A stretch of DNA of 64,000 nucleotides from the NCBI GenBank assembly GCA_963779615.1, contig CAVZZA010000001.1, positions 448,001 to 512,000 of the forward strand, written 5' to 3'. Every line of letters begins with the position of its first letter. The first letter of the stretch is position 1. This stretch comes from an uncultured Nitrososphaeraceae archaeon (lineage in GTDB: Archaea > Thermoproteota > Nitrososphaeria > Nitrososphaerales > Nitrososphaeraceae). Under the pieces are notes generated by a model. It saw only the letters and a list, made by a program, of their open reading frames with translations, made no database searches and was not told the origin of the DNA. The position numbers were made by a program, and so were the translations under genes. Shown here piece after piece: positions 21,391-58,107 of this stretch.

Positions 21391-21420
21391 ACTTGGTCAA
21401 CATTGTTCTATTCGATAATA

Positions 21421-21675
21421 ATGAAATATAGAAGTAGAACAGAAATAACTGTGTTAATTCTAGAAGCAGCAAATGGGGGAGCCACCAAGACAAAAATCAT
21501 GTACAAATCATTCCTTTCATATGCACAGTTAAAAGAGTACTTTTCAATGTTGATAGAGAATGCATTGATAGAATATGAGGATGGAACACAAAAGTACAGG
21601 ACAACAGAAAAAGGTTTGCAGCTATTAAAAATATATAATCAGATAGAAGAATTAATTCCAAATACCATCAAATAA
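21421..21675 (+). CDS. Small wHTH regulator (COG3432-like), copy 1
   Basis: MKYRSRTEITVLILEAANGGATKTKIMYKSFLSYAQL. Confidence 0.9.
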   Translation: MKYRSRTEITVLILEAANGGATKTKIMYKSFLSYAQLKEYFSMLIENALIEYEDGTQKYRTTEKGLQLLKIYNQIEELIPNTIK

Positions 21676-22870: not shown

Positions 22871-23139
22871 TATTTGCTATTATTATTATAATAATAATAT
22901 ATTGAGTTAACAGTGCCTATTTTAGGGCATTACAGCCTAATCTAAATCAATAAAATAACAATTAATTAACAGCATTTATTATTTTTCAATTTTATTGAAG
23001 ATCCTAAATAATGCCAATAATAAAATCAATCACATTTTCGATGCCACTTTTTACTATGATCAAATGTTCTGATCAAAAGATATGATCGAAAGAACAGCTT
23101 TTTATAAATACTTGGTCAACATTGTTCTATTCGATAATA

Positions 23140-23418
23140 ATGAAATATAGAAGTAGAACAGAAATAACTGTGTTAATTCTAGAAGCAGCAAATGGGGGAG
23201 CCACCAAGACAAAAATCATGTACAAATCATTCCTTTCATATGCACAGTTAAAAGAGTACTTTTCAATGTTGATAGAGAATGCATTGATAGAATATGAGGA
23301 TGGAACACAAAAGTACAGGACAACAGAAAAAGGTTTGCAGCTATTAAAAATATATAATCAGATAGAAGAATTAATTCCAAATACCATCAATTCGTCAATA
23401 CACAAAGAGCCTTTTTAA
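23140..23418 (+). CDS. Small wHTH regulator, copy 2
   Basis: Nucleotide-identical to copy 1 up to ...NTI, with a different tail. Confidence 0.9.
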   Translation: MKYRSRTEITVLILEAANGGATKTKIMYKSFLSYAQLKEYFSMLIENALIEYEDGTQKYRTTEKGLQLLKIYNQIEELIPNTINSSIHKEPF

Positions 23419-24278: not shown

Positions 24279-24539
24279 TCAGTTATTATTTATGTGGGGG
24301 ATTATCTCTTCTATCTGATTATATATTTTTAATAACTGCAAACCTTTTTCTGTTGTCCTGTACATGTTTAGCATTCCATCCTCATATTCTATCAATGCAT
24401 TCTCTATCAACATTGAAAAGTACTCTTTTAACTGTGCATATGAAAGGAATGATTTGTACATGATTTTTGTCTTGGTGGCTCCCCCATTTGCTGCTTCTAG
24501 AATTAACACAGTTATTTCTGTTCTACTTCTATATTTCAT
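24279..24539 (-). CDS. Small wHTH regulator, copy 3 (inverted)
   Basis: Identical to copies 1 and 2 up to YEDG; then MLNMY instead of TQKY and a different C-terminus. Confidence 0.9.
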   Translation of the reverse strand: MKYRSRTEITVLILEAANGGATKTKIMYKSFLSYAQLKEYFSMLIENALIEYEDGMLNMYRTTEKGLQLLKIYNQIEEIIPHINNN

Positions 24540-25069
24540 TATTATCGAATAGAACAATGTTGACCAAGTATTTATAAAAAGCTGTTCTTTCGATCATATC
24601 TTTTGATCAGAACACTTTATTAGTTAAATTTTTTCAAATATTTTTCATAAGTTGTGTTGTTTGAATATCAGTCAAAGATCATACCTTCCAAATGTAACCA
24701 AGTTACAGAAGAATAAGAAAGGAGATGTAAAACAATAAAGGCAACAATATCAATAATAACAATATATTTATTTATAGCAAAATTCATACATATTGCCTAT
24801 ACAATCCTTGTAACTTTTTAATAATATGCTAGACTTGTCTTTATTTTCTTTATAAAGAATTTGATATAGGGGAGTATAAAGTAAGAAGCATTGAATTTTT
24901 TTACAAAAGAGTAATAAAATACTCTGAATAATTTCACTTGAGTGTACATATTTAATAAGCCTGTTTTGTCTGGATATACCAAAGTGTTACTTTAATACAC
25001 ACTACATAATTCATGTTGAAGGTAAAAAAATCAGATATGTTATATATAGAGAAAATCTAATAAATCAAA

Positions 25070-30755: not shown

Positions 30756-30829
30756 GCCATAATAGCTCAGCTTGGCAGAGCGAGGGTTTCGTAAACCCTA
30801 GGCCGTGGGTTCAAATCCCACTTATGGCT
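30756..30829 (+). tRNA. tRNA-Thr (anticodon CGT)
   Basis: Acceptor stem GCCATAA/TTATGGC, anticodon arm AGGGT-TTCGTAA-ACCCT, T arm GTGGG-TTCAAAT-CCCAC; no intron and no encoded CCA. Confidence 0.97.
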
Positions 30830-38508: not shown

Positions 38509-38907
38509 ATGGATTATAATAAACTAATACCAGAGGAAGAAAAATCTTTTGTAAATAAAGCAACAGAAGATCCTTTTGAGGGTGAGTACAGCAATTTTTA
38601 TGGAGATGGGGCATATATCTGTCAAAGGCGTAATACTACTCCCTTTCCATCAAAAAGCAAGCTTGATTCAGGATGTGGGTGGCCAAGCTTTGATGAAAAC
38701 TTGTCAAATGCAATAAAAACTACAGCCGATTTCGATGGGCTGCGAACAGAAATACAATGTACAAACTGTAAAGCTCATTTAGGACATGAATTTGTAGGTG
38801 AAGAACACTTTACAGATAAAAATACTAGGGAATGCGTTAATTCAGATTCATTATCTGTATTTTTTATCCCAAAGGAAAAGGGGTTGCCAAAAACAATTCA
38901 TGAATGA
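38509..38907 (+). CDS. msrB: Methionine-R-sulfoxide reductase (possibly decaying)
   Basis: GCGWPSF, RTEI.C..C.AHLGH and RECVNS motifs; the first CxxC reads CQRR. Confidence 0.85.
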   Translation: MDYNKLIPEEEKSFVNKATEDPFEGEYSNFYGDGAYICQRRNTTPFPSKSKLDSGCGWPSFDENLSNAIKTTADFDGLRTEIQCTNCKAHLGHEFVGEEHFTDKNTRECVNSDSLSVFFIPKEKGLPKTIHE

Positions 38908-39451
38908 CAATACTGAAATCGCAACACTTGCCAATGGGTGTTTCTGGTGTTCCGAGGCTGTCTTTAAAAGACTTAAAGGTGTCGAATCCGTTCTACCTGG
39001 CTATGCAGGAGGAACAGTAAAAAATCCTTCTTATGACGAGGTATGCATGGAAAATACAGGGCATGCAGAATCAATTCAAGTAAAATTTGATCCAAAGATC
39101 ATTTCTTTTGAAAAGATCCTCAACGTTTTCTGGCATACTCATAATCCAACTACTCTTAACAGACAAGGTAATGACATTGGTACACAGTACCGATCTGCAA
39201 TCTTTTTTCATGACGAAAAACAGAAAGCGATTGCCGAGAAATCAAAACAAGATCTTGAACAAGCAGGTCTTTACAAAGATCCCATTGTGACAGAAATTAC
39301 TCCCTTTGAAAATTTTTATATTGCAGAGGATTATCACAAAAACTACTACGACAAACATCAAGAAGTTTCCTATTGCAATTTTGTGATAGACCCCAAAATC
39401 CACAAACTGCTTAAGCAGTATAGAAGTGATATAAAAGAAGAATACAAATAG
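38900..39451 (+). CDS. msrA: Peptide methionine-S-sulfoxide reductase
   Basis: GCFWC, GHAE, RQGND.GTQYRS and AEDYH motifs; start set at MNDNTE. Confidence 0.95.
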   Translation: MNDNTEIATLANGCFWCSEAVFKRLKGVESVLPGYAGGTVKNPSYDEVCMENTGHAESIQVKFDPKIISFEKILNVFWHTHNPTTLNRQGNDIGTQYRSAIFFHDEKQKAIAEKSKQDLEQAGLYKDPIVTEITPFENFYIAEDYHKNYYDKHQEVSYCNFVIDPKIHKLLKQYRSDIKEEYK

Positions 39452-41012: not shown

Positions 41013-41052
41013 ACCATCTATACATATAGCAATTAGTTTATATATAAGGCAA

Positions 41053-41418
41053 CCTGGTTCCCCTGGTTCCCCTGGTTCCCCTGGTTCCCCTGGTTCCCCT
41101 GGTTCCCCTGGTTCCCCTGGTTCCCCTGGTTCCCCTGGTTCCCCTGGTTCCCCTGGTTCCCCTGGTTCCCCTGGTTCCCCTGGTTCCCCTGGTTCCCCTG
41201 GTTCCCCTGGTTCCCCTGGTTCCCCTGGTTCCCCTGGTTCCCCTGGTTCCCCTGGTTCCCCTGGTTCCCCTGGTTCCCCTGGTTCCCCTGGTTCCCCTGG
41301 TTCCCCTGGTTCCCCTGGTTCCCCTGGTTCCCCTGGTTCCCCTGGTTCCCCTGGTTCCCCTGGTTCCCCTGGTTCCCCTGGTTCCCCTGGTTCCCCTGGT
41401 TCCCCTGGTTCCCCTGGT
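41053..41418. repeat. Perfect 9-bp tandem array (CCTGGTTCC), about 40 copies
   Basis: 366 bp uninterrupted, no spacers. Confidence 0.98.
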
Positions 41419-41732
41419 ATAAGCGGTCACAATATTCGTTGATAGGCCTTCTAAATTATCCTAGGAAAAAAAGGTGGGGTGAGGTGCTAGCGGTAGGGTA
41501 GAGGTAGAGAGGAGATTCAGTCCAAATTAAATTCTTTACTGTGAGGACCCTAACCACTTTTAATTCTACATTTTGAGGACAAGGAGGTAGTTTTGGACTT
41601 GGAGGAAAACCACGTAGGGGTGAATAGATCTGATTGTAGTCGTGGTATTAATTGCAGTATCAGAGAAATAGGTAATCAAGTTCTCCCACTGATTGAAAAG
41701 ATAGGACCTGATCTTATTGATGAATGTATTAC

Positions 41733-42533
41733 CTGTTTTATTTCTGTAGAAAAAACCCAAATTAACTATTCTTTACAAATTTAAAAACCCTGTGTCAAAA
41801 CCCATGACTAGGATGGAGGGAATGGGATTTGAACCCGCTACTTGCATTCACGGGTTCATATGAAAATATCTCCATTTAATTTTCAACTACAAGTAGATTC
41901 TAGGTATTAAAGCAATTATCCAAGAGGAGAGAGGGACTTAAATCCTGGCGGTAAGTCGGTTCTAACACTTTTTAAAACGATTGTCGAGGGTCTCATCATT
42001 CACAAAACAGGCCATAAGAAAGGAAAAAGGCATGACTATGACATCTATAAGAAGAATCATCCCGTAACTCCAAAAGAAGTGATAAATGTGTTTGACCTTG
42101 GCTAGCTTGGGGTTTGGAAAGACTATCCAGGGCAACTATCATCTTTACCATATAAAAAGAAGAAAGATCAAGGGCCATGTGCAGAAGAAAAGGATACAAC
42201 CAGAACCACTCCAGAAAAAGGGTAGTGATAGAGCACACCATTTGCAGGGTTGAAATAAGCACAGGATTATGGGCGATGTCTTCAGAAACAGGTTATGAAA
42301 TTACGACAAGGTATCTGAAATAGTATCAGGACTGGTAAACTACAGAGCATTGTAATCTTTTTAGATGGCTACTATCAGTCATTGCCATACTGATAGGACA
42401 TGCAGATTATAATTATGCAGGAGATCTATATATTGACTGTTTTGTTTCTGTAGAAAAAATCCAAATTAACTATTCTTTACAAATTTAAAAACCCTGCGTA
42501 AAAACTCGTAAAGAGTTGAGGGAATGGGATTTG
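41733..42533. repeat. Imperfect direct repeats of about 100 bp (41733-41837 and 42437-42533), each ending in a tRNA 3'-end-like fragment
   Basis: Shared ctgtttt.tttctgtagaaaaaa.ccaaattaactattctttacaaatttaaaaaccctg...gagggaatgggatttg; the reverse complement reads GGGTTCAAATCCCATTCCCTCCA. Confidence 0.8.
41988..42429 (+). mobile_element. IS5-family (ISL2/DDE_Tnp_4-like) transposase remnant
   Basis: GLIIHKTGHKKGKRHDYDIYKKNHP..VFDLG*LG..RVVIEHTICR; putative right end ttatgcaggagatcta. Confidence 0.8.
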
Positions 42534-42630
42534 TTTACATGTTAGGCAGTAATCTTTTAATAGGCTATAGTTGATTTTAATTGTCTTGCATTGATGCTAA
42601 TTGTTAATGAAATAATTCAAAAAAATAGAG

Positions 42631-44376
42631 TTATATCTTGACCTCCGTTCCATCAAACCTTGTAAATCTGATTTGCTTTGTAAAATTCTCATTGTAAGTT
42701 AGTTTCTGTTCTTGTAATATTCCGATTGATATTGCTTCCCCCAGTCTCAATGAGTTCCAATAATCACTTCGGTAGTGAACACCTGCGCCATTTCTACCTA
42801 TAGCAACATTTGCGGCTAATTTATTTAACTCCCCTCCCAACGTTAGTTGGTTCTTATCTGATCCTTCGTAATCGTGAAGTCCATTACCTGAATCATTAGC
42901 TTCCACAGGATTATCAATCTTGAAAGTATTATCAAACCAAGCTTTCAGGATAGTTACACAGGCACCAGCTACAGTTGCATGTCCTGCGCCATATGAAGGG
43001 TGAGCAGGTGATCCCTCTGGAAATGCTAAAGGAAGCAAATAAGTACCTCCGGTTTGTTCTCTATCCTCATTTTGTTTCTCATTATGTTTGAATATTTTTT
43101 GAAGAACAGATGAATTCAACGCATCTATATGGATAGGATAGTTGACGTTACTTGCCTTTTTAATATGAATTAATCCTGCTATAGCTTCTGGCCTTAATCG
43201 GCGATATAAGAACCATTTCGTATACCATACTGATTTCAACGCCCTTGTTGCTACCTCGCAGACCAAACTTAATATATGTGGACCACCAAAGGTTCCGAAT
43301 CCATATTGAGTTTTAAACTGCGTTGTCGAGTTATCTTTGTAAGGATTACCTTCATTTAGTATTTTAGCACCCACATTGGCGTCATCAGATAATCTGAGTA
43401 AATACATACATGCTGAAAGATATGCTTGATATAGTGCATCATAATGTACAAAAGTAGCCAAATCTCTTAGATTACGCAAGAACTTGGGTTTGTTTTCAAA
43501 GTAGCTTAATGGATCTCTATCATCATTCTTATAGAGTGGGCTAATATCCCGCTTCTCTCCTCGTTGAACTGAAATCCATGATTTATAATTTGTAACGAAG
43601 TCTTTACCAGGAACTGCCACTACGTGTCTTTGGTCAATTGCGCAGGTCCCATACTTAAGCCATCCATCATCTTCGTCACGATTTAGGACAATATCTTTAT
43701 TGCCTTTAAGCATAAATTGTGAGATATATGGGCCCACAAGATCGCCGTCAGTCGAACCTCTAAATATGCTTTTTTCAGTCACCTTGCCACCAATTTTTGG
43801 CCCATGAAAATCAGATAATTTATTCAAATCCGTTATAGCATCTTTCACCAAGTTATCAGTTCGATAATCAGTAAAATGTACATCTCTAATAAGGGACATC
43901 CAATATAATTCCACTATTTCACCTGCGGCTTCTGCTGAATTTAGCTTTGGTGGAGATGGAAATGGAAAATAGCTGTTGATATCATTTAGATCGGTTGATC
44001 CTTTCTTTATTAAGGCAACTGCATGGCCATCGGGACCCTCTAATTCATATGCTAATCCTGACTGAGGATTTGTGAGTTTTTTGTTGCCTCTGCCATTAAC
44101 AAATGATTGATCTAGAATAATATTTTGAAAGTCAATAGGGTCACCGCTTTGTATTGCTTTGAGAAAGCTTTGATATGCGGCTACATCAACTTCTCCTGAA
44201 TCTTGATGAGGCAAACTCTTGTGAAAATTGGCGATGAGATTAGGATAAGTTTGCTCCTCTTCATTAGGAGGCCCTATCTGTAAGTCCTTACCAAAATGTG
44301 GTCTACTGTTGGCAAGGTTTGTCGCGTCATCTCTAATTTTTTTGGCATTGTTTTTTCTTTGCATAGGATCGTTCAT
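42631..44376 (-). CDS. Vanadium-dependent haloperoxidase
   Basis: All three vanadate-binding motifs: KWFLYRRLRPE, HPSYGAGHATVAGAC and GELNKLAANVAIGRNGAGVHYRSD; also ELYWM and YISQF. Confidence 0.93.
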   Translation of the reverse strand: MNDPMQRKNNAKKIRDDATNLANSRPHFGKDLQIGPPNEEEQTYPNLIANFHKSLPHQDSGEVDVAAYQSFLKAIQSGDPIDFQNIILDQSFVNGRGNKKLTNPQSGLAYELEGPDGHAVALIKKGSTDLNDINSYFPFPSPPKLNSAEAAGEIVELYWMSLIRDVHFTDYRTDNLVKDAITDLNKLSDFHGPKIGGKVTEKSIFRGSTDGDLVGPYISQFMLKGNKDIVLNRDEDDGWLKYGTCAIDQRHVVAVPGKDFVTNYKSWISVQRGEKRDISPLYKNDDRDPLSYFENKPKFLRNLRDLATFVHYDALYQAYLSACMYLLRLSDDANVGAKILNEGNPYKDNSTTQFKTQYGFGTFGGPHILSLVCEVATRALKSVWYTKWFLYRRLRPEAIAGLIHIKKASNVNYPIHIDALNSSVLQKIFKHNEKQNEDREQTGGTYLLPLAFPEGSPAHPSYGAGHATVAGACVTILKAWFDNTFKIDNPVEANDSGNGLHDYEGSDKNQLTLGGELNKLAANVAIGRNGAGVHYRSDYWNSLRLGEAISIGILQEQKLTYNENFTKQIRFTRFDGTEVKI

Positions 44377-44519
44377 GTAATTTCACTCAATTGATATTGG
44401 TTTATCATTGCAATAATTAACAATAACTATTATATATAGTTTGTGAAATATTGGATATTCTTGCCAAAATTAAATATTATTGTATATTGTAAGACTTGAA
44501 CAATGATAAGAAATTGAGC

Positions 44520-44655
44520 ACTTCCCAAAATTATCTTTCTGTAAATAATGATACTGCATGATAGTTGCACCAGGCAAGATAATTCTCGGATTTCTTTTCG
44601 TATCTTGTGAACAGTTTCCTGAATCTGTTGTGCCATGAGTTTTCCTGTCTACAAT
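44520..44655 (-). mobile_element. IS5-family transposase C-terminal fragment
   Basis: NSWHNRFRKLFTRYEKKSENYL(fs)LVQLSCSIIIYRKIILG. Confidence 0.75.
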
Positions 44656-44952
44656 CCATCACCTGTTTTTTGCAGGAGTGCCTCATGAAATAATATAATG
44701 TATTTTCTATGCAATGAATCAAGAAATACTAGAATTTTTAAATGTTAGATAATCAATGATACGAATTCACATCGAGATGCCTCATATCCTGATAAGTTTA
44801 TTTAGATTCGTTTGCTAGGAGGTATAGCAAAATAAAAAAATCAGATTAACAGGACATGATCAGAGGCTGCTGTGATTGATTACACATCTTTGTATCAATG
44901 TTTAGTCAAATATGGAAAAAACCTTAAATCATTTATTTTTTTATAAGATAGA

Positions 44953-46651
44953 GTGGTTCTAAAGATAAAAGGCAATCGTTATTTATCGTTTTTTGTTTAT
45001 GGACTTGCAGCTGGACTTGTTGCTTTTGCATTATCGATTTTCTTAAAAATAACTATAAATGGATTGTTTATTCCTGAACTGGCGTCTCAAGGCTTGATAT
45101 CGATTACTTCTGGGGAAATTGAATCTCAAGCTGTACTTACTCTTGGACCATTAGCAAAATATTCCACATTTATTGGTGCAACGGTGGTTAGCATCTTACT
45201 CTATGGAATAATAGGCATAATTTCAGGCGCATTATTTGATAGATTAAAAGTGAATAGATACATCATTAGAACCGGCCTATCAAGACTTAATTTCTTATGC
45301 AATACTAATTTTTATCGTTGTTATCTTTGTTACGTTAAGTACAGTTCCAGGACAACCTGTTTTGATCCCTTATAGCTCGATAGCAAAATTCGTACTGCCC
45401 AATATTGGTTTTGGATTAATAATTTCATTATTGTTAAGAAAAGGAAGTGAAAAATCAAATTCAATCAAACCTGTCCCAAATGAAGGAGAAGAGAGGGTAA
45501 TCTCTAAAGATAATGAAAATCAATCTATAGATTACAATAAGAGGAACATGATCCGGGCCTTGATAATATCTGCTATTGCCCTTCCGTTAATTTATTTTGG
45601 TTTCAATAGAATCCTTCACAGCGCGGAACAACAATCAGGATCGGAACTGTCACAACAAGCTCAAAATAACGCTACACAACAAATATTGCAGTCAAATACA
45701 AGACCTGTTGGTTTTGAAGATCCACGGCTGACCCCATTACTGGATGCCGAGATTACTCCAGCTTATCTTTTTTATCGAATAGATATTAATGCAATTGTCC
45801 CTGTTGTTAATGCTCAAGATTGGAACCTCTCAATAAAAGGGCTAGTGGACAATCCTCTAGTGATTAACTATAAAGAAATTAAAAGTATGGATCCAGTTGA
45901 GCAATTCTCTACTTTGGTTTGTGTGAGCAATAAAATTGGTGGAAATTTGACCAGCACTGCCTTGTGGAAAGGCATACGTCTCAGAGATCTGATATCCAAA
46001 GCAGGGATAAAACCAAATGTCAAGTATGTTGTTTTTAGATGCTCAGACGGCTATGACGTTGGAATACCCTTTGAGAATGGCATGATGGATGGAACTATTT
46101 TAGCATATGATATGAATAGGTCACCGCTAACCAATGAACATGGATATCCTATTCGAGCAATAGTGCCTGGTTTCTATGGAATGATGAATCCGAAATGGAT
46201 AACAGAGATAGAATTGGTAGATAAAACATATGAAGGATTCTGGCAGAGAAAAGGCTGGACAAATGACAGTATTAAAAACATCTATTCATCAATCGTGGTT
46301 CCAGGAAGCCAGCCTATTACGGACCGATTTCCTCATACAGTCACAGATAATTCCTTTACAGTTGGAAAAAGTATTCCAATCGCTGGAATTGCTTTTTCTG
46401 GGGACCGAGGAATATCCAAGGTTGAAGTCAGTACAGATGGCGGAAAAACGTGGAAAACAGCGGTAGTTAAAGATCCATTGTCACAATATACCTGGGTGCT
46501 ATGGACCAGCCAGTTTACTTCTGAGAGTAAAGGCGCATTCGACATTGTAGTAAGAGCAACAGACAAAACAGGGCAGGTCCAAACCTCCAAGTTAGAAAAT
46601 CCGTTTCCCAAGGGTGCTAGCGGATACAATCAAATAGATTTAAACATATAA
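44953..46651 (+). CDS. Membrane-anchored molybdopterin oxidoreductase (sulfite oxidase/MsrP family), +1 frameshift near 45287
   Basis: FYRID, TLVCVSN (Mo-ligand Cys), HGYPIRAIVPG.YGMMNPKW and VEVSTDGG motifs; the N-terminal TM part rejoins the frame if one base is removed. Confidence 0.85.
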
Positions 46652-46789
46652 TGTTAGTTAGATCCTTCTTTGCCCATTTGTTTAAGCAACTAAAATGTAT
46701 TTAATGACAATATTCCTTGCAAAATAGAATCAAATGATGTATAAAAAAAACAAACCAACATAAAAGAAATTTACAAAAAGAATGGAAAA

Positions 46790-57061: not shown

Positions 57062-57610
57062 TTGAAACAAGACGACAATGACTATAGTAATGGTAAACGT
57101 TTTAAACCACTTTACAAACACCTCTTGATAATCTGTATTGTGGTAGTCACCTTGGTCGGAATAAGCGCCTATGCCGAATTACAGATAGGAAAGTCCGACA
57201 TTAAAGAAAAATCCTTCAGAAATGACCCGTTTGTGTTGCGTGTTCATTCGCACTTGACAATCATGATGGATAATAAATCCATTACCACACCCAGCCAAAT
57301 AGGCATAGATAAACCATTGTGGAAAGGTCATACGCTTGATAAATATGGAGCACCTGGAATGCCAATGCAAGGAATGGTGATGCCAGGTATGGCGCCAATA
57401 TATACCACAGACAATAGCGGTCTAATCCATGTAGGCTCAGTAGTCAATAGGAACTATACATTGGGTGAGTTTTTCCAGATATGGGGGTTGGATTTGGATG
57501 GTAAAACAATAAAAGCCACGGTTGATGGGAAACCAGTGCCCGATTTTAAGAACATCATTTTGAGAGAGGGTCAGCAGATTCACCTTGACATCACCAGTAA
57601 AAATGGATGA
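57062..57610 (+). CDS. Hypothetical membrane-anchored protein
   Basis: TM segment, then VHSHL, PSQIGI and YTLGEFF.IWG motifs; Met-rich loop. Confidence 0.65.
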   Translation: MKQDDNDYSNGKRFKPLYKHLLIICIVVVTLVGISAYAELQIGKSDIKEKSFRNDPFVLRVHSHLTIMMDNKSITTPSQIGIDKPLWKGHTLDKYGAPGMPMQGMVMPGMAPIYTTDNSGLIHVGSVVNRNYTLGEFFQIWGLDLDGKTIKATVDGKPVPDFKNIILREGQQIHLDITSKNG

Positions 57611-57631
57611 TTTTTATAATATCACATCATA

Positions 57632-58107
57632 ATGGTATCGATTATTGGCAAAATCTCCATGGCCCATTTTAACCCGCTGTGACTTTGGGCTTTCTGATTA
57701 CAAAGCACATAACGAAAAGACAGTTACTCCTTTACATATCTGCAGATATAACGGGGGCGCTATTGGCAAACTTGTTTGTAAAATATGCCATAGGGAATGA
57801 GGCATTCCTTGGAGCCGATTCTCCAAACTATGCGTATCCTCTGCCTTTGATAATCGGGGTGGAGATGTTGGCTTCTGCCCTGCTGATGGCTGTGATATTG
57901 ATTGTTGTATATACAAGGGGCCTGAGAGGCTTTGGTGGAATAGTTATTTGTGCTGTGGTTGGCTTGGACATTTTCTTTTTGCCCTTTGTGTCAGGGGCAT
58001 CAATGAATTCTGCTCGTTCATGGGCCCCTGTCAGTGTCTGGCCAAATGGGAAACCTGTGGGTTTTACTCATAAGCCACCTTTGCTGGAACACCGCCAACA
58101 ATCGTAA
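57632..58107 (+). pseudogene. Aquaporin (MIP) pseudogene
   Basis: ISMAHFNP is frameshifted before AVT; the second motif reads GASMNSARS; both ends truncated. Confidence 0.8.

Follow-up and report, generated by a model that had tools for sequence, protein, structure and literature searches.

Do the ammonia-oxidizing archaea (AOA) of soils carry a working vanadium-dependent haloperoxidase (VHPO), and how did the gene for such an enzyme come to lie among the remains of insertion sequences (IS)? These questions are raised by one gene in a 64,000-nucleotide stretch of DNA from an uncultured Nitrososphaeraceae archaeon (assembly GCA_963779615.1). This stretch, hereafter called the window, corresponds to C1:448001-512000 of the host genome (G000; 3.17 Mb, 5 contigs, 92.5% complete). 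An earlier note on the same DNA, made from its letters only, had read the gene as an intact VHPO of red-algal or cyanobacterial type. Our analysis makes us rather confident that the open reading frame (ORF) encodes a functional cytoplasmic VHPO of the Corallina/Acaryochloris bromoperoxidase type, and that it belongs to an archaeal clade and has moved among related soil AOA. The gene and its predicted active site are as follows:

42631..44376, minus strand: coding sequence of the VHPO (protein P0001), with an ATG start and 581 uninterrupted amino acids (aa)
K387, R395, H459, G465, H466, R528, and H534 of P0001: predicted vanadate site, with W384 at the halide-specificity position

The identity of the protein rests on its relationship to enzymes of known structure. 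A phmmer search of all PDB chains returned solely vanadium haloperoxidases, the best match being the Acaryochloris marina enzyme (AmVHPO; 5lpc) together with its mutants (E 2.5e-106). Four Corallina-type bromoperoxidases (7qvw, 1qhb, 1up8, and 8vgx) matched at E 4e-100 to 6e-98, co-linear over residues 29-581, and two Ascophyllum enzymes at 6e-59 and 5e-53. A chance frame is ruled out by E values such as 2.5e-106 for 5lpc and 1e-98 to 4e-100 for Corallina enzymes. AlphaFold2, given an alignment of 116 sequences, predicts the all-helical fold of VHPOs (mean pLDDT 94.5, pTM 0.95), and Foldseek placed 1qhb (TM 0.84/0.82), 8vh0, 7qwi, 1up8, 5lpc (0.80), and 1qi9 (0.82/0.85) at the top, with 5aa6 also among the matches, for a TM range of 0.80-0.85. 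The Corallina or cyanobacterial type proposed earlier is thus borne out by the PDB matches and by the structural superposition, and both sequence blocks quoted in its favor, HPSYGAGHATVAGACVTILKA and GELNKLAANVAIGRNGAGVHY, are present in the translation. The wider family is large: in the protein collections, 7,914 of the 8,000 scored candidates are related to the VHPO at E <= 1e-10, and at E <= 1e-30 its relatives form 1,027 clusters at 50% identity, with named members from Nostocales and other cyanobacteria, Actinomycetota, Acidobacteriota, and others.

The active site is complete. All seven residues of the predicted vanadate site are invariant in the 116 homologs, and likewise in a 19-sequence alignment, and they align with the matching residues of 5lpc and 1qhb, in agreement with the earlier claim of a full set of vanadate-binding motifs. 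Judged by alignment, the protein would have the R-x5-H ligand histidine, the Lys/Arg/Arg residues, the histidine of the (S/A)-G-H motif, and the second histidine of bromoperoxidases. From the VHPO literature, we take His534 to be the vanadate ligand and His466 the acid-base residue. K387 aligns with AmVHPO Lys428, and H459 corresponds to AmVHPO His513 when counted from the phmmer alignment via the R425/Lys428 offset; in the excerpted text of PMC11871015, Lys428 is named as the active-site lysine and His513 is termed "active site His513."

Several observations on family membership weigh against our reading. The local Pfam scan returned a subthreshold PAP2 match alone (PF01569; 18.1 bits against a cutoff of 27.2, E 0.0023), in disagreement with the precomputed annotation of the protein collection, where PF22778 is listed for the VHPO and its relatives, and the NCBIfam scan assigned no family. 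In addition, the apo-forms of VHPOs act as phosphatases and have the PAP2 active-site motif in common with those enzymes, so that sequence alone leaves room for a phosphatase role. An enzyme acting in the cell as a PAP2-like acid phosphatase or phosphoesterase, with its vanadate site binding phosphate, would fit the PAP2 superfamily motif (K..RP, PSxxxGH, R-x5-H-x3-D), the weak Pfam match, the JGI label "membrane-associated phospholipid phosphatase" on several homologs, and the presence of 3bb0, a phosphate intermediate trapped in apo-chloroperoxidase, among the distant fold matches. Nevertheless, we consider such a role quite improbable, since the entire 581-aa architecture fits vanadium bromoperoxidases (VBPOs; TM 0.80-0.85) and not the PAP2 phosphatases of ~220 aa, which appeared in Foldseek only at E above 0.2 with a TMq of ~0.15 and have just the active-site motif in common. 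Moreover, the second histidine, H459, is invariant, and the closest characterized relatives are all haloperoxidases.

A cytoplasmic location is suggested by the N terminus. The stop-to-stop frame of the gene comprises 583 aa, which is just 2 codons beyond the 581-aa ORF and rules out an overlooked N-terminal extension or signal peptide; the N terminus itself is hydrophilic, and residues 4-23 form a helix in the AlphaFold model. The uninterrupted ORF and the missing signal peptide that had been noticed at first sight were therefore both confirmed. Elsewhere in the family, the homologs of two archaeal groups (L003/L025/L027/L041 and L028-L030/L042) have twin-arginine motifs (S/T-R-R/K-D-F-L/I-K) at their start. 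The VHPO gene immediately follows TatC and TatA in L029 (1-909) and L030 (68-967), and TatA in L042 (369-731), all in one genus. The clade of the window VHPO is free of twin-arginine leaders, and the family thus appears to hold both cytoplasmic forms and forms exported by the twin-arginine translocation (Tat) system.

Which halides might such an enzyme use? The earlier note had pointed to the A-G-H motif, in place of S-G-H, as a peculiarity that could affect halide range. This does not hold, as Ala464 is at least 90% conserved in the 116 homologs and the characterized Acaryochloris enzyme 5lpc reads A-G-H too; the motif is ordinary for the prokaryotic clade, and S-G-H is the Corallina version. 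More telling is Trp384, three residues before Lys387, which is likewise at least 90% conserved. According to the excerpted text of PMC11871015, this specificity position is occupied by Arg in the bromoperoxidases of Corallina and Acaryochloris and by Trp in the enzymes of Curvularia and Ascophyllum, which chlorinate, and replacement of Arg by Trp or Phe increased chlorination in the C. pilulifera enzyme. Against a simple rule, the same excerpts report that chlorination by AmVHPO was increased by R425S and not by R425W (10%), a case of Trp without a gain of chlorination, so that the halide range of the window VHPO is not predictable from this position. Given Trp384, use of chloride is possible.

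Our best reading is that the VHPO would be active and vanadate dependent and would make HOBr or HOI, perhaps HOCl, from H2O2 in the cytoplasm. The steps proposed for such a reaction are modeled on the family, and the residue roles are those of the VHPO literature. Vanadate would be held by His534, with hydrogen bonds from Lys387, Arg395, Arg528, and the Ala464-Gly465 backbone; H2O2 would then bind, helped by His466, to form peroxovanadate; and attack of a halide on the peroxovanadate would release hypohalous acid (HOBr or HOI). Chloride would perhaps also be used, with Trp384 at the specificity position as in chlorinating enzymes. The hypohalous acid might go on to halogenate nearby electron-rich compounds or meet a second H2O2, with net consumption of peroxide.

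If the protein is what it seems, how widespread is it among archaea? The host is an AOA, as the earlier note had supposed, with an archaeal amoA (PF12942; E 1.6e-117) on contig C3. Homologs were counted at E <= 0.001 in sampled groups, where a nonmatch means that none was found in the searched genomes:

Same genus, other genomes: VHPO homologs in 3 of 33
Whole host family, including G000: 27 of 238 genomes, in 10 of 18 genera
Host family, genomes at least 90% complete: 18 of 116
Even draw from the class, including G000: 10 of 401
Host family within the class draw: 8 of 78
One other family within the class draw: 1 of 4
Largest family within the class draw: 0 of 223

Among the three matches within the genus, the protein of G020 is 89% identical to that of the window; for those of G015 and G002 the identity is 41-50%, the value varying with the method.

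Two unrooted trees, both built without PDB sequences as rows, place the gene. The first (FastTree) had 129 rows, made up of 94 locus-derived sequences (at least 480 query residues covered, shorter ones dropped), 28 of the proteins P0002-P0030 (P0015, with fewer than 480 aa, was dropped), six named sequences, and the query. Here the window VHPO falls in a 34-row clade (SH-like 96) of family genomes, one Nitrososphaerales metagenome-assembled genome (MAG), and unnamed metagenome proteins only. In the second tree (IQ-TREE with the LG+C20 posterior mean site frequency [PMSF] model; 57 rows picked to represent clades), it falls in a 15-row clade (SH-aLRT 100) with Nitrososphaerales and unnamed rows only, inside a 21-row clade (97) that also holds filamentous cyanobacteria (Floridaenema and Coleofasciculus) and a second archaeal group. 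Archaeal VHPOs form four groups in the second tree, one of them nested among Acidobacteriota. A union of all 26 archaeal and unnamed rows, a set that was fixed after the first tree had been seen and contains 7 unnamed rows, is rejected by the approximately unbiased (AU) test (lnL lower by 51.8, p-AU 0.0045). A red-algal origin of the gene is rejected by both trees. The placement suggests that the VHPO belongs to a Nitrososphaeraceae-specific clade. A phylogeny and a survey of Nitrososphaeria had been proposed in the earlier note; both have now been run, and they give an archaeal clade with cyanobacterial neighbors outside it and a patchy distribution. Direct import from algae or cyanobacteria does not stand, as the gene sits in the 15-row clade of Nitrososphaerales and unnamed metagenome sequences, with filamentous cyanobacteria as the nearest outside relatives. 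The horizontal acquisition put forward in the note, in the general sense of lateral movement of the gene, is supported by comparison with the copy in G020. Three genes of the two genomes were compared:

VHPO, G000 versus G020: 89% aa identity (517/581), 81.8% nucleotide identity, pS 0.635 (dS 1.41), dN 0.06
Large subunit of PolD (DP2), G000 versus G020: 75.9% aa identity, 71.3% nucleotide identity, pS 0.791 (saturated), dN 0.163
Acetyl-CoA synthetase (AcsA), G000 versus G020: 74.8% aa identity, 72.9% nucleotide identity, pS 0.775 (saturated), dN 0.152

DP2 and AcsA are syntenic in the two genomes, and by both control proteins G000 is equidistant (75-76%) from all five congeners compared. The DNA homology of the two VHPO loci is confined to 42631-44467, that is, to the gene and ~90 nucleotides (nt) upstream. 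Synteny with the G020 ortholog was sought and rejected: the neighbors differ, the G020 homologs of MsrA and of a molybdenum (Mo) enzyme encoded near the window VHPO lie on other contigs, and the DNA homology stops at the gene borders. The lower divergence of the VHPO than of the controls, the homology limited to the gene, and the differing neighbors together indicate that the two copies split later than their hosts. A further difference concerns a tetratricopeptide repeat (TPR) protein of ~290-306 aa encoded divergently upstream of the VHPO in G020, G015, G002, and G207, which span two VHPO clades. Its genes (L123:12019-12936, L004:3577-4449, L005:3622-4500, and L019:195-1064) show 56-72% identity between loci, with 90% between G015 and G002. 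A full-length TPR copy was not found in G000, where the best match has 34% identity over part of the protein and contains a stop. The comparison also indicates that the G000 copy was relocated without its TPR partner, and the latest movement of the gene appears to have been between archaea of one genus. Two considerations weigh against this account: two housekeeping genes and a single congener underlie the argument for transfer, and part of the signal would be mimicked by a gene that evolves unusually slowly. As we see it, the VHPO would have been transferred laterally or relocated among related AOA of soils to reach its present locus, losing its usual TPR neighbor, and would have come to rest in an IS-littered region.

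A gene stranded in such a region might also be a mere passenger that is no longer expressed or useful and is decaying between IS relics. The IS debris, the frameshifted duplicate gene adjoining it, the patchy occurrence in the genus (3 of 33 other genomes), and the internal stops in the homologs of at least three family genomes (G058, G062, and G041) would all fit this view. The window gene itself tells otherwise: its frame is intact, all its catalytic residues are kept, and dN/dS for the G000/G020 pair is 0.043, so that the VHPO is under strong purifying selection. In addition, ~90 nt upstream of it are conserved, and RNA libraries made from soil in three studies contain near-identical sequence. 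We therefore hold decay to be very unlikely and retain a functional enzyme as the preferred reading. The upstream sequence is described by one feature:

44377..44467, minus strand: conserved region of ~90 nt upstream of the VHPO, found by alignment with the G020 ortholog, with a TATA-like CTATATATAATAG and a block of 26 nt that does not differ between the two

The blastn homology between G000 and G020 ends at 44467. It is probable, as far as sequence features can tell, that 44377-44467 comprises an archaeal promoter, an operator, and a 5' leader that travelled with the gene. The 26-nt block is a candidate operator. This block, with a near-palindrome around TGCA, is unchanged between G000 and G020, though 63% of the synonymous sites in the VHPO have changed. 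A scan for sigma-70 promoters and terminators was set aside as not meaningful for an archaeon.

As for expression, a 31-mer search found 17-31% of the sampled words of the VHPO in soil metatranscriptome runs X1-X4 from three studies; in runs X5-X21 the shares were small, and they support no claim about habitat. Among contigs from the RNA libraries, 17 of the 21 records listed fall inside 42589-44386, with 7 further pieces beyond those listed, and the full-length pieces on the VHPO are 114-286 nt long with 0-9 mismatches each. The flanks have no cover, save a few pieces on the Mo-enzyme gene and one on an IS relic; since the runs were chosen with the VHPO itself, this pattern says nothing on relative expression. 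That choice of runs, and the chance that the contigs come from carried-over DNA, detract from the case for a functional gene. The data are a hint that the VHPO is transcribed in soils, possibly with signal from close relatives.

What, then, surrounds the gene? The earlier note had seen IS5 relics on both sides, and these are indeed degenerate relics of two different IS5-type elements. The features adjoining the VHPO are as follows:

41719..41831, plus strand: first copy of a ~115-nt direct repeat, with an 83-nt block 89% identical and an exact 16-nt block between the copies, ending in a tRNA-T-arm-like GGGATTTGAACC
41987..42430, plus strand: downstream IS relic of the HTH_Tnp_4/DDE_Tnp_4 type (IS5/Harbinger-like), with a broken frame and 36 other matches in the genome at 69-81% identity
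42423..42533, plus strand: other copy of this direct repeat, with ~100 nt between it and the stop codon of the VHPO
44523..44673, minus strand: upstream relic, the C-terminal end of an IS5-family transposase of the DUF4096 + DDE_Tnp_1_2 type, frameshifted, with 24 other matches at 71-88% identity

The relic fragments themselves are too degraded to give a match in a Pfam scan, and the assignment of both flanks to IS5-type elements is through homology to multicopy elements with IS5-type transposase domains. In the downstream case a copy (L007, itself two overlapping ORFs) has HTH_Tnp_4 and DDE_Tnp_4, and in the upstream case a copy (L014) has DUF4096 and DDE_Tnp_1_2. The ~115-nt direct repeats bracket the downstream DDE_Tnp_4 relic. 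Further out, 44824-46682 is 98.5% identical to C4:3876-5734 and duplicates the neighboring gene for a sulfite-oxidase-like Mo enzyme, which is one intact 565-aa ORF on C4 and is frameshifted into 140 + 429 aa in the window (44953-46651). Relatives of the Mo enzyme have open frames of 568-581 aa. The split gene in the window reflects either a recent segmental duplication with a decaying copy or an assembly error. IS debris and duplicated DNA thus form a patchwork around the VHPO.

Three explanations for the arrival of the gene in this patchwork were considered and rejected. A composite transposon carrying the VHPO does not fit, as the two relics come from distinct kinds of IS and the gene is not enclosed by long terminal repeats. 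The T-arm-like GGGATTTGAACC had raised the idea of integration into a tRNA gene, which was dropped, since the one tRNA that ARAGORN predicts, at 30756-30829, is more than 10 kb away and 41817-41954 is a dispersed repeat. An "empty site" on contig C4 was likewise discarded, the flank matches there being the Mo-enzyme duplication and the dispersed 139-nt repeat, with no clean preinsertion allele. This repeat (41817-41954) contains tRNA T-arm-like strings (GGGATTTGAACCC) and is 90% identical to C4:6155-6293, with weaker copies elsewhere.

The locus is probably native to its archaeal host. The window encodes CdvA, both PolD subunits, Cdc6, GGGP synthase (PcrB), and plastocyanin-like proteins, and the GC content of the VHPO (0.37) equals that of its surroundings. 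Since, in addition, the gene lies on a 709,742-bp contig, amoA is present in the genome, and 26 other family genomes have homologs, contamination or chimerism, which the earlier note had named as a threat to its own reading, is unlikely.

Other observations in the window are recorded here for completeness. A perfect 9-nt tandem repeat with ~40 or more copies (unit TTCCCCTGG on the plus strand) occupies 41053-41418 (about 41040-41430), between a gene for a helix-turn-helix protein and the IS debris, and leaves all six frames open (GSP, WFP, GNQ, and GTR repeats). Three paralogous small winged-helix (HTH_45) genes (21403-21672, 23122-23415, and 24282-24557) lie just past the Cdc6 gene, in a highly AT-rich stretch with a GC content of 0.28-0.30. 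At 57062-58107, a match to the aquaporin-like MIP family is limited to profile positions 74-196 in a 142-aa ORF, and the preceding 182-aa ORF has no match; this is perhaps a split gene.

What might the enzyme do for the cell? The most likely roles would be the handling of oxidative stress or the production of a diffusible oxidized halogen. The earlier note had argued for a peroxide sink from the H2O2 sensitivity of many AOA. That argument is weakened here, as G000 has two Mn-catalase genes (C1:50110-50931 and C1:155394-156215), with which a peroxide-sink role of the VHPO is not needed; a heme catalase was not found in G000. An msrB-msrA pair lies at 38509-39451, 3 kb from the VHPO, and is not a conserved neighbor in G020, where a gene for a thioredoxin-like DUF899 protein is found near the VHPO copy. 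Both sets of genes are compatible with an oxidative-stress setting, though they are not conserved neighbors. The TPR protein is a possible functional partner or regulator of the VHPO.

A more specialized function would be that of a substrate-selective halogenase dedicated to one natural product, of the kind represented in Streptomyces by NapH1 and the Mcl enzymes. Selective VHPOs exist, a mutant of AmVHPO was shown to possess a substrate pocket (excerpted text of PMC11871015), and the TPR gene conserved in divergent orientation at 4 other archaeal loci could encode a partner. However, no biosynthetic genes were found beside the VHPO in the window, in G020, or at 18 archaeal loci for which up to 1.5 kb on each side was searched. 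The NapH-type enzymes are remote in fold (E ~1e-3, TMq ~0.2), and the TPR neighbor is missing in G000, where the VHPO is still under purifying selection. We therefore hold this function to be very unlikely, and a less specialized production of hypohalous acid remains the reading that we prefer. The organohalogen chemistry in a nitrifying archaeon that the earlier note had envisaged is something that we, too, can only infer, no biosynthetic partner genes having been seen near the VHPO.

Far more speculatively, and with slim odds in our own estimate, the VHPOs of soil AOA, whether cytoplasmic or, in sister clades, Tat exported, might make hypohalous acid that, in surroundings rich in ammonia, immediately forms haloamines with NH3 and amines, and so tie nitrification to soil halogen cycling. 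The products could act as a weapon against competitors or a quencher of their signals or, most boldly, open a peroxide-driven side route from ammonia to hydroxylamine. If this were true, Nitrososphaeraceae would be an unrecognized source of reactive halogen and organohalogens in soil, and the conserved Trp384 makes it possible that chlorination would be among their reactions.

Even on a more sober view, VHPOs are diverse within a single family of soil AOA: they fall into four phylogenetic groups, include leaderless as well as Tat-signal forms, and have homologs in 27 of 238 genomes. Should the enzyme be active, abundant nitrifiers would count among the organisms that generate reactive halogen in soil from halide and peroxide, with a bearing on natural organohalogen formation, microbial antagonism, and the handling of H2O2 by AOA. 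To our knowledge, the VHPOs that have been studied biochemically come from algae, fungi, or bacteria; none from archaea was found in the searches made. A literature search pairing haloperoxidase with AOA, Thaumarchaeota, and nitrifying archaea, with supplements outside its scope, found nothing linking VHPOs to AOA, and no VHPO is assigned to AOA in the excerpted texts of PMC13519999 and PMC4926216. The VHPO of the window is not a new kind of system, and archaeal homologs are already named by automatic annotation in NCBI; no paper discussing or testing them was found. Three of these proteins, called [quoted passage not shown] (P0006, P0027, and P0105), belong to the same archaeal clade and are 59%, 51%, and 48% identical to the window VHPO, their names being automatic labels on MAG proteins.

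Among the enzymes of known structure, AmVHPO (5lpc; mutants 8q20-8q22) is the best sequence match (E 2.5e-106) and has in common with the window VHPO the A-G-H motif, the HPSYGAGHATVAGACVT block, and the fold (TM 0.80); cyanobacteria, the group to which it belongs, also include the nearest nonarchaeal kin of the archaeal clade. It differs in its length of 666 aa as crystallized, in insertions in the N-terminal half that split the match into 7-176 and 198-579, and in having Arg (R425) where the window protein has Trp384, with ~36% identity in the structural alignment. The VBPOs of Corallina officinalis and C. pilulifera (1qhb, 1up8, 7qwi, and 8vh0) are closer in build, being co-linear over residues 29-581, giving the best fold matches (TM 0.83-0.84), and having 596-598 aa and no signal peptide either. 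In contrast to the window VHPO, they are red algal, ~37% identical, and read S-G-H, with Arg at the specificity position in the wild type (1qhb; 7qvw is an engineered Trp mutant). The Corallina and Acaryochloris enzymes are dimer-based homo-oligomers, a dodecamer, in which two subunits form the active-site channel. The VBPO of Ascophyllum nodosum (1qi9) and the chloroperoxidase of Curvularia inaequalis (1vnc) are the most distant of these enzymes in sequence, with E 5.9e-59 and 28-29% identity for 1qi9 (fold TM 0.82/0.85) and E 0.026 only for 1vnc (Foldseek). Yet it is these two, both described as chlorinating in the excerpted text of PMC11871015, that have Trp three residues before the active-site Lys, as does the window VHPO with W384. 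This natural Trp at the specificity position makes the archaeal clade a ready-made test of how chloride use is controlled in VHPOs.

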